Source: an uncultured delta proteobacterium
GTDB taxonomy: Bacteria > Myxococcota_A > Polyangia > Polyangiales > Polyangiaceae
Reading direction: 5' to 3'
Assembly (NCBI GenBank): GCA_963716725.1
Contig: CAVQUB010000001.1
Span: 160,001 to 224,000 of the forward strand
Length of the DNA: 64,000 nt
The notes beneath the pieces were generated by a model. It was given only the letters and a program-made list of their open reading frames with translations, was not told the DNA's origin and did no database searches. Each line of letters begins with the position of its first letter. The stretch's first letter is position 1. A program made the position numbers and the translations under genes. Positions 33,875-38,620 of the stretch are shown here, piece by piece.

Positions 33875-34474
33875 ATGAGCCGACTTGCGCTGGTGACTGC
33901 GGCGCTCGTGCTGCTGGGGTGCTCGACTGACGAGGGGAGCGGCGGCAGCGGGGGTGCCTCGGGCAGCGGCGGCGCGTCGGGCAGCGGCGGCGCGTCGGGC
34001 GGCGGTGGCGCGGCAGGCAGCGGCGGCGCGGCAGGTAGCGGCGGTGCATCCGGGAGCGGCGGCGTATCCGGGAGCGGCGGCACCTCGACCGGTGGCGCCG
34101 GGGGGACCGGGGGCTCGTCCGCTTGGATCGATCCGCTCGCGGGCGTGGGCAGTGTCGAGAAGGTCGCCGGCGGCTTCACCTTCACGGAGGGGCCGGTTTG
34201 GTTTGCGAAGACCGGAAAGCTCTACTTCAGCGACATCCCGAACACGCGCATCCACGAGCTCTCGCCGCCGAGCAGCGTGAGCGTGTATCGAGAACCGAGC
34301 GGTCAGGCCAACGGGCTCGGCATCGACCAGAATGGCTTGCTCGTTGCGTGTGAACACCAAGGCCGCCGGGTCAGCCGCACCCAGAGCGGCGGCACGGTGG
34401 TCTCGGTCGCCAGCACGTATCAAGGCAAGAAGCTCAACTCCCCGAACGACGTGATCGTGAAGAAGGACGGCAAT
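33875..34474 (+). pseudogene. SMP-30/gluconolactonase lipoprotein, 5' half (interrupted)
   Basis: LLGC lipobox; FTEGPVW, LYFSDIP, ANGL, KLNSPNDVIV..DGN, then the element begins. Confidence 0.9.
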
Positions 34475-34499
34475 TAACCGGCCAATCGTGCCGCGCTCC

Positions 34500-35882
34500 T
34501 CAGCGCGGAGATTTGCGAAGCAGTCTGCGGAGATCGGCTTGCAGTCGGCGGACACGTCGGACGAGCATGCGTGCGGAGTCGCGATCGAGCCCATCGTCTT
34601 GGGTGCGCTTCTGCACGTATCTAGCGAGGTCGGCCAGCAACTTGAGGGGCTCCGGAGCGGGGGGTGAGGCGGTAGCAGCCGTGGGAGTGATCATGGGGTA
34701 GCGCTCGGCAATTCGCTCGAGTGCCGCGGCGAATTCGGCGAACACGGTGGTGCCGGTGATCTCCGCGTATCGCAGGGTCATGCGGTAGTCGGTGTGGCCG
34801 AGCAATCGCATGACCGAGGGAAGGCTCATTCCTGCGGCCAGGAGCGATGTCGCGTAGGTGTGACGGAGGCGATGCGTCGTCATCGGTTCGGCGAACTGAA
34901 TGCCACGGCAGGCCTCGCGAAGTGCTTCTCTATAGGACCCGTAAAGGGTCTTGCGACCGGCGGCAGTTGCGAGCAGCAGGGTGCGCTTACGCGGGCCTGT
35001 CCGCCGCAATCTGGAAACGAGCGTGACGGTGCGCGGATCGAGCGGGACCAGCCGCTCGGTGGCGAGCTTGCCGAGCGGGACCTTGAGCAGGGTGTTGCCG
35101 CTGTGGTCGGTGCGGATGCAGTGGTACGGTAATGCGATGAGCTCGCCGATGCGAAGTCCGGTGCGTCGCATCAGGAGCAAACCGAGCTGATACATGCACC
35201 CGGACTTCTTGAACCGGCGCTGAAGGAGGAGGTCGGTGTCAGGAGGAACCGGGCGAGGCAGGTACTTGGGGAGCTTCGGCAGGTCGCTGCCACGGATCAA
35301 TGTGTCGGCGGGCACAGAGAGCACGCGCTGCTCTTCGAGCGACTCGAGGTACGCGCGGATGTTCTGGATGGCGTGAACTCGGGTGCAGGCAGCGAGGTGG
35401 CGAGCGTGGAGCCAGGCGAGCCAGGACTCGATGTGTGAACGCTCCAGGCCGACGAGAGACACATGGTTGGCGTTGAGCCAGATGTGAAACTGTCGGAGAT
35501 GGGTTTGATAGGCGCGTACGGTCTGCAGCGAGTGCGTGGGTTTGAGCAATTCGAGGAAGCGGCTGGCATGTGGTGGCAGCGGGAAATTCGAACGCGGCCA
35601 AGCGCAACGCGGGTCGAAGCCGAGGAGACCACGTGCATGAAGCCACTCGAAATACATCAGGGCGAGGCGGCGTTGGCGGGCGCGCACATGCTCGGGCACC
35701 GGCGCCTTGGATGGCTGCTGAAGGAAGCGATCGATTTCCGAGCTCTCGAGCTGCAGGATCGGCCGGCAGCTGGCCTTCAACCAAAGGTGAAATTGGCTCA
35801 GAACGCCGCGCGCTCTCGGCTCGCGCTGCAAGAATTCGAGCGCGAAAGGGGGCAGATGGGCGAGGGGGTCGCGGCGCGCCAT
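34500..35882 (-). CDS. Tyrosine recombinase (460 aa, extended N-terminus)
   Basis: TGLRIGE, GK, HRLRHTYAT, LLGH...TLRY. Confidence 0.95.
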   Translation of the reverse strand: MARRDPLAHLPPFALEFLQREPRARGVLSQFHLWLKASCRPILQLESSEIDRFLQQPSKAPVPEHVRARQRRLALMYFEWLHARGLLGFDPRCAWPRSNFPLPPHASRFLELLKPTHSLQTVRAYQTHLRQFHIWLNANHVSLVGLERSHIESWLAWLHARHLAACTRVHAIQNIRAYLESLEEQRVLSVPADTLIRGSDLPKLPKYLPRPVPPDTDLLLQRRFKKSGCMYQLGLLLMRRTGLRIGELIALPYHCIRTDHSGNTLLKVPLGKLATERLVPLDPRTVTLVSRLRRTGPRKRTLLLATAAGRKTLYGSYREALREACRGIQFAEPMTTHRLRHTYATSLLAAGMSLPSVMRLLGHTDYRMTLRYAEITGTTVFAEFAAALERIAERYPMITPTAATASPPAPEPLKLLADLARYVQKRTQDDGLDRDSARMLVRRVRRLQADLRRLLRKSPR

Positions 35883-35891
35883 GATGCAATC

Positions 35892-36941
35892 TCATTGCCG
35901 ATAGCGGGCGGCGATTTTCTTGAGCGCGCGCCGGAACTCGTCGGCCACGTCGGCCATGGACAACCGTACGTACTGCAGTGTTGTCTTCAGATCGGCATGG
36001 CCCATCATCTGTTGCAGAACGGGCAAGCGCACACCAGCGCGCGCCATGTCGGCCCCGAACGTGTGTCGAAACCGGTGGGGGTTGGCGATCGCGAGCACGC
36101 GCCGGCGACGACGATGCCGGAACAAGCTCCTCAGTCCAGCCGGCGTCATGGGCTGGCCGCGGCGCTTACCCTGTAAGACGACGAACAGACTCGGCTTGCT
36201 ACACTGCCTGGGCCTCTCGAGCTCGAGGTACCGCCGCAACGTGCGTGAGAGCACGAGCGGCAAGGGCAGTGCGCGGTCGCGCTGCCCTTTGCCGCAGACG
36301 CGAACACGGCCGTCGCTGAAAACGACGTCGGCAAGCTCGAGCCCGAGAACTTCAGCCGAGCGAAGGCCGCACAGGAGCATGAAATGGGTGATGGCGAGAT
36401 CCCTGTAGCGGGTGAGACTGCGAAGGAACGCTCGCACCTGCTCGGGCGTGAGCGGCTCGACGAGCTTGCGCGGCTCTTGGACACGGAGCTTGAGCACGCC
36501 GCGTCGTCGGAGCCGGTGAATGCCGAGGTAGTGATCACGACCGGGCCCCTTGTAGTGCGCAGCGGGCAAGCTCACGCGAGAGCCGACGCCGAGCTCTCGA
36601 TTCATCCAGAAGCGATACAGAAGGCGGGCTGTGGTCAACCGGCGATTGATTGAGCGTGGCTCTGCGCCGGCCTTGCGTTGCGCTGCGATGAACCCCAACA
36701 AGTCGCGTGCCTCGAGCTGCCGAAGCGAGCGCCCCTCAGCACGCATCCATCGATAGAGCAGCAGCAGATCATATGCGTACGCCCGGACCGTACGCCGGGA
36801 TAATCCGCGGACCCCGAGTGCCGAGAGAAACTCATGAACCTCGGCGACCACGCCATTGGCATCCACGAGCGAATGGCCAATCTCCGAGTGCGCGACCACG
36901 CGCAAGGCGGTACCGAGGTCGCATTGCAGGCTGCTGCTCAT
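35892..36941 (-). CDS. Tyrosine recombinase (349 aa, Tn554 TnpA-like N-terminus)
   Basis: TVRAYAYDL, CGLRSAE, GKG, HRFRHTFG, MGH...TLQY. Confidence 0.95.
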   Translation of the reverse strand: MSSSLQCDLGTALRVVAHSEIGHSLVDANGVVAEVHEFLSALGVRGLSRRTVRAYAYDLLLLYRWMRAEGRSLRQLEARDLLGFIAAQRKAGAEPRSINRRLTTARLLYRFWMNRELGVGSRVSLPAAHYKGPGRDHYLGIHRLRRRGVLKLRVQEPRKLVEPLTPEQVRAFLRSLTRYRDLAITHFMLLCGLRSAEVLGLELADVVFSDGRVRVCGKGQRDRALPLPLVLSRTLRRYLELERPRQCSKPSLFVVLQGKRRGQPMTPAGLRSLFRHRRRRRVLAIANPHRFRHTFGADMARAGVRLPVLQQMMGHADLKTTLQYVRLSMADVADEFRRALKKIAARYRQ

Positions 36942-37237
36942 GGCACTGCACGTCGCTGGTGCGCTCGGATGCCGTGGTGCACGGTGGCGTGATCGCGACG
37001 GAACAGCGATGCAATCTCCAGGAGGCTGTAATGGCGATCGGACTGATTACGAATCAGCCACCAGAGCTCCTGGCGTGCACGTGACACGCTCGAGGTCCGA
37101 GCTCGGCCGCAGAGCTCTTCCCGAACCACGCCACGACGACGGCAGACGTCCTCGAGCAAGGGCGTGAGATTGCGCACCTCGAGCGCTGCGAGGACGGCCG
37201 TGGCGCTGCTCGCGCCGTCGGGGCTGGGCGCGGTCAT
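36938..37237 (-). CDS. Stand-alone DnaA C-terminal (domain IV)-like HTH protein
   Basis: R..SVSRARQELWWLIR...SLLEIASLFRRDHATVHHG matches the DnaA RDHTTV.HA pattern; ATGA overlaps at both ends. Confidence 0.8.
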   Translation of the reverse strand: MTAPSPDGASSATAVLAALEVRNLTPLLEDVCRRRGVVREELCGRARTSSVSRARQELWWLIRNQSDRHYSLLEIASLFRRDHATVHHGIRAHQRRAVP

Positions 37238-37608
37238 CGAGGCACTCCGAAGAGCAGCATCTGCCTCAAATCGCAGAATTCACCGACGCCCACGAGGTCG
37301 CGATGACGGCGACGAACGCGAGCGGGCGGTGGTACCCAGTCCACGGTGTACAGCGGCGCCCCGTTGTCGATTGGGATCCCATCGTAGGCTGACAAGTCCG
37401 CTTCGACGCCCCGCTCTTCCGCAGCGAGCGCAACGCGGACCGGTTGCCCCTGCCACAGCGCCAGCGCCTCGAGCAGAAGCGGCAACGCCCGAGGGTGCGT
37501 CGGCGGGCGCAGCAACCGGGCCTTTAGAATCGTCTCGCTCGGGCCGGCCATTGCGAGCACGCGCATCTCCTGGGGCCCAGGTGCAACGCCCATCCAAATC
37601 GAGCTCAT
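37234..37608 (-). CDS. Element accessory hypothetical protein
   Basis: RBS GGGAG; ETILKARL..HPRALPLLLEALALWQG; stop overlaps the next start. Confidence 0.75.
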   Translation of the reverse strand: MSSIWMGVAPGPQEMRVLAMAGPSETILKARLLRPPTHPRALPLLLEALALWQGQPVRVALAAEERGVEADLSAYDGIPIDNGAPLYTVDWVPPPARVRRRHRDLVGVGEFCDLRQMLLFGVPR

Positions 37609-37924
37609 GGGTCGACTCCCGCTCCGAGCTCGATGCCGCCCCAACGACGGCCTCGGCTACGAACGGGACGACCATCTCACGATGGCCAAGTTTTTCGGCT
37701 GTGCTGTGCGTTACATTTTTCTGCTGCTCACGCCAGCGAGCCACTCGCGCCGCCGTCGTCGTGTGCCCCAGCTTGCTGCGGCGGTACCGGCGCACGGACG
37801 CTTCGCGCGACAAGCGTCGGCACTCCGGGTCGCAGAACAGCCTGCCGTAGTTGCACGCCGGGCAAACGTCGAGCACGTTGTGGCATCCAACGCGAGAACA
37901 CTTCGCCTGCTGAAAAACGACCAC
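37280..37924 (-). CDS. Zn-finger-like accessory protein (3' part overlaps the next gene out of frame)
   Basis: CSRVGC...VCPAC.YG..FC..EC followed by basic RRYRRS..G...AARVARWR. Confidence 0.6.
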   Translation of the reverse strand: MVVFQQAKCSRVGCHNVLDVCPACNYGRLFCDPECRRLSREASVRRYRRSKLGHTTTAARVARWREQQKNVTHSTAEKLGHREMVVPFVAEAVVGAASSSERESTHELDLDGRCTWAPGDARARNGRPERDDSKGPVAAPADAPSGVAASARGAGAVAGATGPRCARCGRAGRRSGLVSLRWDPNRQRGAAVHRGLGTTARSRSSPSSRPRGRR

Positions 37925-38152
37925 CGCTGCGAATGCAGAAAGCTGGCCGCAGCACGGGGTGGCATGCGAGGGTAGCGCCGTCGACCGCGACCACCGCGAC
38001 GACCTGAGGGCTCGGAAGTGACCATCCGGGCCCTCTCACTTTCTTCCGCCGTGATCATGGCTGATTCGACACGGCACGGGCCAACTCGGGGCAGAGGGAA
38101 CAGAACGAATCGCCCATATCGGCGACCCGAGATTGGCCGGTTAGATCTCAAT

Positions 38153-38620
38153 CTCTATTTCACCGATCCGCCCTACGGAGGGAACCCGAACGAGCTGGGG
38201 TTCCAGGGCGTATTCCGCGTCGATCCGAGCGGCGCGCTCTCGCTGGTCGCGAGCGACATGTTTCGCCCCAACGGCATCGCGCTCGCGAGCGACGAGAAGA
38301 CGCTCTACGTGACGGACTCGGAGCAGAACTTCATTCGGACCTACGTCGTTGCCAGCGATGGTGCCACGTCGAGCCCGAAGAAGTTCCTCGACACTGCGGC
38401 GACCCCGGACGGCATGGCGGTGAACTTGCAAGGCGATCTGTTCATCAGCACCCAAGCGGGCGTCGAGGCGTACAAGGCCGACGGCACCAAGCTCGGCACC
38501 ATCCCCGTGCCCGAGCAGCCGTCCAATTGCACCTTCGGCGGCACGGACGGCAAGACGCTGTACATCACGGCGCGCAAATCGCTCTACCGGGTCGCGCTCG
38601 GCGTGGCGGGGTTGCCTTGA
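38153..38620 (+). pseudogene. SMP-30/gluconolactonase, 3' half
   Basis: LYFTDPPYG, PNGIAL..DEKTLYV, PDGMAV, PSNCTFGG.DGKTLYITA. Confidence 0.92.

Follow-up and report, generated by a model that had tools for sequence, protein, structure and literature searches.

In 2023, transposons moved by tyrosine recombinases were listed in five groups, and the route taken by Tn554 was given as unresolved (PMC10214605). The same account describes Tn554 as inserting without target duplication and in a sequence-selective manner and as bringing with it, on moving, 6 bp from its previous flank, and it attributes imperfect inverted repeats to the transposon (PMC10214605), contradicting the preliminary description of the DNA studied here, which held that Tn554 has no terminal inverted repeats. 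Van Houdt et al. (2012) delimited a class of actinobacterial Tn554-like elements, some members of which are reported to be without TnpC (PMC3414803). RIT elements comprise three recombinases and 34-bp repeats (PMC10214605). [quoted passage not shown] BIM elements consist of one recombinase and a conserved second protein, labelled as an SMC-domain protein (PMC3414803).

Within the window, the 64,000-nucleotide stretch of DNA analysed here, we identified a 3,678-bp insert which is probably a member of the Tn554 superfamily, an IS-like transposon, autonomous and free of cargo, that has entered an SMP-30/gluconolactonase (SGL) gene. The branch of the Tn554 group to which it belongs is widespread and, apparently, new to the literature. 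The features of the locus are as follows.

33875..34474, plus strand: N-terminal half of the SGL gene (PF08450 profile positions 1-98, E 6e-15)
34471..34474, no strand: CAAT at the left junction, common to target and element, with the presumed crossover inside it
34475-38152: the element, 3,678 bp, with perfect 13-bp inverted ends
34475..34487, no strand: left terminal arm TAACCGGCCAATC, adjoining the 3' end of YR2
34500..35882, minus strand: YR2, TnpB-like tyrosine recombinase, 460 aa (PF00589, E 5.6e-22)
35892..36941, minus strand: YR1, TnpA-like tyrosine recombinase, 349 aa (PF00589, E 1.4e-28)
36938..37237, minus strand: stand-alone DnaA-domain-IV-type helix-turn-helix (HTH) protein, 99 aa (DnaA_C, PF08299, E 8.4e-13)
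37234..37608, minus strand: orf124, predicted RNase-H-like fold, no Pfam family
37280..37924, minus strand: Cys-rich zinc-ribbon-like ORF, its 3' part overlapping orf124 in another frame; end approximate
38131..38143, no strand: right terminal arm GATTGGCCGGTTA, upstream of the operon, exact reverse complement of the left arm
38144..38152, no strand: 9-nt element-borne spacer GATCTCAAT, its last 3-4 nt common to the target
38153..38620, plus strand: C-terminal half of the SGL gene (PF08450 profile positions 99-244, E 5e-28)

Insertion site, ends and relatives

The SGL gene is broken precisely between Pfam profile positions 98 and 99, and the TAA stop following GGC AAT of the left half comes from the first bases of the element. 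The homologue in a genome of the same genus (G001, locus L092) is unbroken at the insertion point and aligns without gaps over the junction (...GAAGAAGGACGGTAAC directly followed by CTCTACTTCACC); by this empty-site comparison, no bases were added upon insertion. Both halves are still open (200 aa on the left, 155 aa on the right) and sum to the 355-aa ORF that had been predicted to result from their rejoining. The profile halves and the intact homologue bear out the preliminary view of an insert splitting a gluconolactonase gene, and its five co-oriented genes are all present as minus-strand ORFs. No gene follows YR2, the stop codon of which lies 12 nt from the arm, and a scan of positions 34300-38300 for sigma-70 promoters returned 0 sites.

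At one mismatch or fewer, the arm is matched twice in the window, at the two element ends (shuffle expectation 0.03), a number reached in none of 100 shuffles, and the perfect inverted ends are confirmed, as is the presence of CAAT at both junctions (34471-34474 and 38149-38152). CAAT directly precedes the arm at all five left junctions read (L001, L002, L003, L009 and L020), and GATCTCAA follows it at seven of seven right junctions read, from two species, so that the element-side 8-mer is constant; the target-side flanks have GAAA..GTCAAT in common.

Relatives of 3.3-4.0 kb, with ACCGGCCAA ends and no cargo, are present in metagenome-assembled genomes (MAGs) labelled Myxococcota, Acidobacteriota, Planctomycetota and Chromatiaceae. 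In all 14 loci from L026 to L039, YR2 comes after YR1, and both arms were found in 10 of the 18 loci read, delimiting units of 3.27-4.01 kb. The ends, which the preliminary description had expected other copies to share, are conserved across phyla as an arm motif with two variable positions, and the relatives insert at many different sites. Where both ends were available (ten elements), the two flanking 9-mers invariably agree from position 2 onwards, over 3-8 nt, with 8 nt in L036 and L039. No published description of this branch of the Tn554 group was found in the literature, in keeping with the earlier suggestion of a little-described family. In MAGs, such elements go under XerC/XerD annotations, and they fragment assemblies; among the matches listed, YR1 homologues are mostly on contigs of ~1-5 kb.

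Recombinases and affinity to described systems

All six catalytic residues of YR1 (R194, K218, H289, R292, H315, Y324) and of YR2 (R244, K272, H337, R340, H363, Y372) align to those of E. coli XerD, R148/K172/H244/R247/H270/Y279, which we take to be the catalytic numbering and the letters of which were confirmed in the alignment; the full set proposed earlier for both recombinases is thus present. YR2 has an extra N-terminal SAM-like region. YR2-like proteins measure 378-397 aa in the sister clade and, among the best 150 representatives listed, relatives of YR2 range continuously from 217 to 695 aa. YR1 is 35% identical to a 360-aa Rhodococcus recombinase (E 1e-49) and YR2 34% identical to one of 637 aa (E 1e-38). 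Of the Tn558 proteins, YR1 matches TnpA at 100 bits and TnpB at 36, and YR2 matches TnpB at 86 bits and TnpA at 49. The tree placement that had been called for puts YR1 beside the Rhodococcus A-type protein as its sister (support 99) and groups YR2 and the B-type together (support 91), with RIT and Xer separate. In the free tree, the staphylococcal Tn558 TnpA and TnpB joined each other, on long branches and with odd composition; trees in which each family was constrained to include its Rhodococcus and Tn558 protein lay 7.7 and 8.0 log-likelihood units above the free quick search (p-AU 0.82 and 0.87). The adjacent, co-oriented recombinases correspond one to one to TnpA and TnpB, a correspondence to be read against the long staphylococcal branches and the XerD match of YR1 (107 bits), approximately equal to that of Tn558 TnpA.

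The actinobacterial class is exemplified by the copy on the Rhodococcus opacus plasmid pR1CP1 (L065), bounded by TAACCGGCTAATC and GATTAGCCGGTCA, with similarity edges within ~30 nt of the arms in most of the full-length plasmid matches listed. Like the window element, it has an adjacent short and long tyrosine recombinase, nearly equal 13-bp inverted ends (TAACCGGCTAATC) and a compact (3.4-kb unit), cargo-free, multi-copy form, and the window element is itself bounded by 13-bp inverted arms of the form TAACCGGC(C/T)AATC, as in this class. The two differ in the length of the long recombinase (637 aa versus 460 aa in YR2), in the DUF6262 (TnpC-like) gene downstream of the Rhodococcus pair, whereas nothing follows YR2, in the upstream region, empty of genes in Rhodococcus but holding three in the window element and a primase in the sister clade, and in host, Actinomycetota for the Rhodococcus type. 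With Tn554/Tn558 (L067) the window element shares the order tnpA then tnpB and, with Tn554, insertion at selected sequences without target duplication, as seen from the empty-site comparison and the common GAAA..GTCAAT. Tn558, by contrast, has TnpC (DUF6262), cargo resistance genes, a 637-aa TnpB and AT-rich ends without the ACCGGCCAA motif; none of the five proteins of the window element matches DUF6262 at E <= 0.1, YR2 is shorter than a TnpB of ~610-830 aa with a large N-terminal extension and, in contrast to the ~6-bp carry-over of Tn554, the spacer is constant in all copies (the same 8-mer at all seven right junctions read, from two species). The preliminary description had matched the layout to neither RIT nor Tn554. 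For Tn554 this goes too far, given the pairing of YR1/YR2 with TnpA/TnpB and the near-identical Rhodococcus arms, whereas the exclusion of RIT stands: RIT elements, too, are cargo-free, with inverted repeats enclosing tyrosine recombinases, but the window element has two recombinases only, and RIT proteins, both those from a Bradyrhizobium plasmid and those from a trio in the genome of the window element (C15:638-3928), form clades apart from YR1 and YR2.

Other assignments were likewise rejected. SE (intA-tfp-intB plus srap) and GInt (ginA-D) have a third recombinase-fold gene that the element lacks, and the NCBIfam models GmtY and GmtZ reached 50 and 18 bits, far short of their cut-offs (340 and 600). 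The architecture differs from that by which BIM are defined in PMC3414803. The best XerC/XerD scores, 152 and 106 bits, fell below the equivalog cut-offs (335 and 330), and the likely host Xer genes, on contigs C4 and C2, cluster with E. coli XerD and XerC.

Accessory genes

What is new here is the accessory set and the host range, with a DnaA-domain-IV HTH protein in the lineage of the window element and a DnaG-like primase (Zn_ribbon_DnaG, DNAG_N, Toprim) in the sister clade, where it was recognized in all five ORFs tested (L034 and L036-L039); the primase is absent from the clade of the window element. Homologues of the HTH protein form 47 clusters, nearly all on contigs of 0.6-5.4 kb, and in L026 and L029 the gap between orf124 and YR1 is too small for the HTH gene. 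DnaA boxes were rejected as its target: TTRTCCACA, at one mismatch, has eight matches in the window against 7.9 expected, one of them in the element.

Elsewhere, the pair of predicted zinc-ribbon and RNase-H-like genes occurs on IS21 elements. In those of Myxococcota, the zinc-ribbon ORF and orf124 lie upstream of the transposase with an equal overlap, and of 29 loci from other genomes, 27 have the orf124 homologue upstream of an IS21-type transposase. The transposition genes of IS21 are IstA (DDE: rve and Mu-transpos_C_2) and IstB, whereas those of the window element encode tyrosine recombinases; with IstA and IstB absent and the upstream two-gene module alone in common, assignment to IS21 was rejected. 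In comparison with the G003 copy, orf124 has 25, 7 and 7 substitutions at third, first and second codon positions, respectively. Its AlphaFold2 model (pLDDT 74; beta3-alpha-beta-alpha-beta-alpha) aligns with many RNase-H-like folds at VIA-align Z up to 8.0, with no specific family indicated, and its top Foldseek matches in the PDB, at TM ~0.45, were uninformative, namely, ribosomal protein chains, pantothenate kinase and a domain of HIV reverse transcriptase. The Atlas offered a lead, and a lead only, to the IS110 DEDD domain (score 0.89). A shrunken primase was rejected (hhalign probability 0.2%). In the Cys-rich ORF, three cysteines are invariant in all eight aligned relatives, and seven of the eight, including L037, which has no overlapping gene, have a second C-x-x-C in the tail; the codon-phase signal is weak.

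Movement and maintenance of the element

In the loxP/Cre and dif/XerCD sites, a short asymmetric spacer separates two inverted arms to which the recombinases bind. We propose that YR1 and YR2 would act on the two identical terminal arms, that joining of the ends would create a lox- or dif-like site (arm, 9-bp spacer, arm), and that this site would recombine with a target having 3-8 bp in common with the spacer, here (T)CAA(T). Agreement between the two starts at the second spacer position beside the arm on the YR2 side, where the flank of the target is loosely arm-like. Unlike loxP and dif, the site would exist only after end joining, with a 9-bp spacer and a partner sharing 3-8 bp; the arms are identical at both ends, although two different recombinases would share the site. 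The three upstream genes may be accessory or regulatory, and a DnaG-like primase stands in their place in the sister clade. Because there is no target duplication, exact reversal would restore the SGL gene.

The arm-N8-10-arm arrangement was detected in 19 metagenome loci, three of which (L117, L106 and L110) contain family genes in circle order, with a 9-nt spacer; in L117, for instance, the YR2 3' end, the junction and the zinc-ribbon ORF follow one another. The three contigs may derive from a circle or a tandem copy. The other 16 loci, without a recombinase and between ordinary genes, were rejected as joined ends. The joined-end site foreseen by the preliminary description was recovered for relatives, whereas for the window copy neither the back-joint 38152->34475 nor the empty-site joint 34474->38153 was present in the contigs of four runs (X1, X4, X5 and X6), a weak negative, as the search used Logan contigs, which drop rare forms. 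We infer a circle for the window copy, the parts of the two recombinases in binding and cleavage, the replicative or excisive course of movement and all accessory roles.

Replicative copy-out, in which one strand pair would be exchanged at the ends and a circular copy completed by DNA synthesis, leaving the donor in place and no empty site, is a less likely alternative. The synthesis would be served by the DnaG-like primase in the sister clade and by the DnaA-type HTH protein in this lineage, and the raised number of near-identical copies as well as the joined-end contigs of relatives are consistent with it; copy-out has been proposed for SE, with a likeness to Tn554 noted (PMC10214605), and the same route is suspected for the latter. 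Nevertheless, DnaA-box-like 9-mers are not enriched, the spacer is constant, without the variable carried-over flank of SE and Tn554, and the clade of the window element has no primase.

That the element has lost its mobility, its copies being relics multiplied through segmental duplication or through a mixture of strains in the MAG, is improbable. The genome, a MAG with 3.9% contamination, contains three full copies (99.6-100% identity) and one cut by a contig end. The flanks of the C33 and C31 copies are 96-98% identical, maybe representing one locus in two strains, and the C31 and C15 copies have many frameshifting single-base indels, which could reflect decay or assembly error. However, the window and C33 copies differ by 19 substitutions and no indels, with all five ORFs open and the catalytic residues intact, and they reside on contigs of 290 and 141 kb, the flanks of the window copy being unrelated to those of the others. 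At least three distinct flanks are present in this genome, and more in metagenome contigs of two studies. The other copies lie in unrelated, non-SGL contexts; the C33 copy is flanked by ORFs with a distant amidohydrolase and a weak HAMP match in Pfam, and by an adjoining ORF without a family. The element is real and recently mobile, and multiple copies in the genome together with ends conserved across phyla uphold the earlier identification of a cargo-free tyrosine-recombinase transposon.

Elements do interrupt genes in sporulating or heterocyst-forming bacteria, and excision at the common CAAT would rebuild an intact ORF from two open halves, but the on/off switch suggested earlier, whereby the element would be kept because its reversible excision toggles the gluconolactonase gene, is most improbable, given that other copies and relatives are inserted elsewhere, that at least one junction of this insertion is spanned in contigs from runs of three studies and no contig joins 34474 to 38153, that the same-genus genome is simply without the insert, and that exact restoration is expected of any tyrosine-recombinase insertion, with no special adaptation.

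Returning to the Tn554-type transposon, a bolder and rather doubtful reading is that the recombinase pair constitutes a portable core, repeatedly joined by replication-type helpers, a DnaG-like primase in one clade and the DnaA-domain-IV HTH protein with the IS21-borrowed zinc-ribbon/RNase-H-like pair in this one, and moves by self-primed or recruited replicative copy-out. If true, it would give the long-unsolved Tn554 pathway a simple model and would represent a mechanism so far undemonstrated among tyrosine-recombinase transposons. In a minimal, IS-like, multi-copy form, the Tn554-type pair also occurs in bacteria from soil and water that belong to several phyla. The sharp ends and simple joined-end site of this form offer a small system for locating cleavage sites and for distinguishing excision from copy-out, and the swapped accessory modules, namely, the primase, the DnaA-type HTH protein and the gene pair shared with IS21, are leads on control or replication.

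The insertion and its recent mobility

The 3678-bp insert at positions 34475–38152 is a real, precisely bounded and recently mobile element. As the preliminary description had it, the insert carries perfect 13-bp inverted ends with CAAT at both junctions. Its five co-oriented open reading frames (ORFs) all lie on the minus strand, and both tyrosine recombinases, YR1 (349 aa, catalytic tyrosine Y324) and YR2 (460 aa, Y372), possess the full R-K-H-R-H-Y set at positions aligned to Escherichia coli XerD. The terminal arms are:

34475–34487, left terminal arm (YR2 side), TAACCGGCCAATC
38131–38143, right terminal arm (operon side), exact reverse complement of the left arm

Allowing at most one mismatch, the arm has exactly two matches in the window, both at the ends of the element, compared to a mean of 0.03 in shuffled sequences, where two matches were reached in none of 100 cases. 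The right arm is followed by a 9-nt spacer, GATCTCAAT, which ends in CAAT; the same four bases directly precede the left arm.

A single SMP-30/gluconolactonase (SGL) gene is split between the two flanks, as previously described: the left half (200 aa) corresponds to positions 1–98 of the Pfam SGL profile and the right half (155 aa) to positions 99–244. The homologue in G001, a genome of the same genus, is unbroken, shares 82% identity with the window over the left flank and aligns across the junction without a gap or added base; therefore, the empty site that had been predicted, GACGGCAATCTCTATTTC, is correct. At its start (33935–34100), the SGL gene encodes a lipoprotein-like leader followed by an extended repeat of Gly, Ser and Ala; the DNA of this repeat has matches at many places in related genomes, which swamped the flank search. 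At the other boundary, a 200-aa ORF (38018–38620) begins with GTG inside the right end of the element and continues, without a change of frame, into the second half of SGL; a fusion product is conceivable. The operon-side end also contains a hairpin with a 9-bp stem (38106–38129, minus strand), located 2 bases inside the arm, and, about 40 nt further inward, an arm-like copy, GAGTTGGCCCGTG, comparable to those in a copy from another genome of the genus (L009) and in two relatives (L027, L028).

The window's genome, a 7.9-Mb metagenome-assembled genome (MAG) of 35 contigs (84% complete, 3.9% contamination), holds three full-length copies with 99.6%–100% identity, on the window contig and contigs C33 and C31, and a fourth that breaks off where contig C15 ends. 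Between the C33 copy and that in the window there are 19 substitutions, 17 of which fall within the first 305 nt on the operon side, and no indels; the C31 and C15 copies contain many single-base indels, which may reflect decay or assembly error. The flanks of the C33 and C31 copies are 96%–98% identical, and the two may be a single locus seen in two strains, or their region may have been duplicated. The C15 copy has a third flank, different from these and from the SGL gene, and contigs from public runs add two more, one each in contig sets X1 and X5. G003, of the same genus, contains two copies (80%–83% identity) and one solo end. CAAT precedes the arm in all five left junctions examined, and GATCTCAA follows it in all seven right junctions. 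The non-SGL copies (L006 9435–10023, on G000:C33 in the window's genome; L009 and L020 in G003) reside in an intergenic stretch that is repeated and weakly conserved, beside an ORF that belongs to no Pfam family and contains an Arg-Pro repeat. This stretch, present in two species (71%–78% identity over 59–136 nt), may be a preferred target.

A branch of the Tn554 superfamily

NCBIfam models returned only Xer scores for the recombinases, all sub-threshold. The nearest plasmid-borne relatives are elements of Rhodococcus and Mycobacterium with recombinases of 360 and 637 aa followed by a DUF6262 protein, which correspond to the actinobacterial Tn554-like class (PMC3414803; Van Houdt et al., 2012). 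YR1 matches the 360-aa protein (35% identity, E 1e-49) and YR2 the 637-aa protein (34%, E 1e-38), and the two match each other at E 1e-12 only. Compared to Tn558, a genuine Tn554-family transposon from a staphylococcal plasmid, YR1 reaches 100 bits against TnpA and 36 against TnpB, and YR2 reaches 86 against TnpB and 49 against TnpA; the link of YR1 to TnpA is weak by itself, because XerD scores 107 bits as well. In a tree of 48 proteins, the Rhodococcus A-type protein is sister to the YR1 group (support 99), the YR2 group joins the B-type protein (support 91), Xer proteins form a separate clade and RIT proteins, represented by a Bradyrhizobium plasmid trio and a trio from contig C15 of the window's genome, three clades of their own. 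Both staphylococcal proteins paired together as long branches; trees constraining each family with its Rhodococcus and Tn558 counterparts gained 7.7 and 8.0 log-likelihood units over the unconstrained quick search (p-AU 0.82 and 0.87). The ends of the Rhodococcus element, TAACCGGCTAATC and GATTAGCCGGTCA, differ from those of the window element by one base per arm, and in most full-length plasmid matches listed similarity begins and ends within about 30 nt of the arms.

Protein, tree and end evidence therefore place the element in a branch of the Tn554 superfamily, of which it is a variant that occurs across a wide range of environments and has an unusual accessory set of modular make-up, rather than in the separate transposon family proposed initially; the accompanying view that it matches neither RIT nor Tn554 holds for the former, but is too strong for the latter. 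Neither BIM (one recombinase and another protein) nor SE/GInt (four core genes) fits the element. In contrast to Tn554-type elements, no gene follows YR2 here, and TnpC is therefore lacking. YR2 is also shorter than its Tn554-type counterpart, and apparently includes two core-binding regions of SAM-like type; among the best 150 of 256 representatives at E ≤ 1e-30, its relatives span 217–695 aa. The C15 trio, three adjacent tyrosine recombinase genes at the contig start (G000:C15:638-3928, outside the window), clusters one-to-one with the Bradyrhizobium trio and is therefore a RIT-type element. Full-text literature searches turned up no publication that deals with this branch or its ends, nor with DUF6431 or DUF6262.

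More than 120 clusters are homologous to YR1 at ≥61% identity, many of them named XerC or XerD and nearly all on contigs of ~1–5 kb, as is typical of a repeat that has collapsed in assembly. YR1 is followed by YR2 in all 14 loci from species-representative genomes (L026–L039), the MAG labels of which (Polyangiaceae/Deltaproteobacteria, Gemmatimonadaceae, Terriglobia/Bryobacterales, Planctomycetota and Chromatiaceae) are subject to unsure binning of such short contigs. Arms were found upstream in 14 and downstream in 14 of 18 loci examined, and on both sides in 10; the remainder mostly run out at contig ends. The arm core, ACCGGCCAA, is constant across family loci, and the ten complete units measure 3.27–4.01 kb, in which cargo would not fit.

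Accessory genes and a pair shared with IS21

Upstream of the recombinases come the accessory genes: in the Myxococcota clade, a zinc-ribbon-like Cys-rich ORF and a 124-aa ORF (orf124). Between orf124 and YR1, the window lineage carries an additional gene for a 99-aa DnaA-domain-IV helix-turn-helix (HTH) protein. Almost all of the 47 clusters homologous to this HTH are on short contigs, and there is no space for the gene in L026 and L029. The sister clade (L034, L036–L039) encodes, in the accessory position, a complete DnaG-like primase partnered by a DUF6431 protein or the Cys-rich ORF.

Substitutions between orf124 and its G003 copy (25, 7 and 7 at third, first and second codon positions) indicate a real gene. 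Its predicted model (pLDDT 74) has an RNase-H-like strand/helix order and matches sugar kinases (Z ≤ 8.0), poxvirus Holliday-junction resolvase (7.6), an IS110-type recombinase (6.9), Ydc2 (6.7) and RuvC (6.2), a level that may reflect the common fold only; an alignment of seven sequences contains no invariant acidic residue. The tail of the Cys-rich ORF overlaps orf124 in a different frame (37280–37608) and is open through all of it, as in L026–L030 and the IS21 copies, and a second C-x-x-C motif in the tail recurs in seven of eight aligned relatives, including L037, which lacks the overlapping gene. The two are possibly a true overlapping gene pair.

Among 201 genomes of the order, a profile search with orf124 gave matches in 36, the window's genome being one of them. 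Among the 29 loci returned from other genomes, none has the recombinase pair and 27 have an IS21-type DDE transposase just 3′ on the same strand; L153 (G160:C4), for instance, reads Cys-rich ORF, orf124 homologue, IstA (rve + Mu-transpos_C_2) and IstB. A second, diverged pair in the window's genome (G000:C1:286789-289900, outside the window; L005, L152; orf124 62% identical) is likewise followed directly by such a transposase (rve + Mu-transpos_C_2), without recombinases. IS21 elements thus have the pair in common with the window element despite an unrelated transposase type, which makes it a portable leader module of two transposase types and suggests that it may act in regulation or in interaction with the host, not in recombinase chemistry.

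Joined ends and a probable route of movement

Joining of the element ends would yield right arm, 9 nt and left arm. Scanning metagenome contigs for two arms separated by 8–10 nt produced 19 loci, in three of which a recombinase 3′ end abuts the junction. One of these, L117 (a 3973-nt contig), reads YR2 end, junction, leader and Cys-rich ORF, the gene order expected of a circle or tandem copy. The joined-end junction foreseen in the preliminary description is thus present in relatives, none of the three from the window element's own subfamily. The other 16 loci (L103–L105, L107–L109, L111–L116, L118–L121) are palindromes flanked by ordinary genes, one lying behind pheS, for instance, and another amid genes of an ABC transporter; T-runs follow several of them, as in terminators. 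The two free arm positions are complementary in all 19 matches.

In the ten complete elements, we set the 9 nt that lie beyond one arm against those beyond the other. The base adjoining the YR2-side arm is invariably A (10/10); identity between the flanks begins at the next base and runs for 3–8 nt (ATTG in the window element, 8 nt in L036 and L039), and the remaining spacer derives from the element on the operon side and from the target on the YR2 side. The YR2-side target flank is alike among copies (GAAA..GTCAAT) and, by our own count, matches the element spacer and arm at 10–11 of 21 positions. This pattern fits a model in which the joined-end site would integrate site-specifically into a loosely matching target, with strand exchange anchored at one spacer edge. 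Carried-over flank bases are reported for Tn554 and SE (PMC10214605); unlike these, the present family shows none.

The donor copy may be either excised or copied; the sister-clade primase and the DnaA-type HTH of the window lineage hint at DNA synthesis, but DnaA boxes are not enriched. The suggestion that the element serves as an adaptive on/off switch of the SGL gene has no support: contigs from runs of three studies cross one or both junctions of the insertion in SGL (left and right in X1, right in X4, X5 and X6), none of the public-run contigs, in which rare forms are invisible, joins both SGL halves, the remaining copies and relatives occupy unrelated sites, and exact gene restoration upon excision is a general property of tyrosine-recombinase chemistry. 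The chief value of the element lies in the questions on mechanism that it raises.
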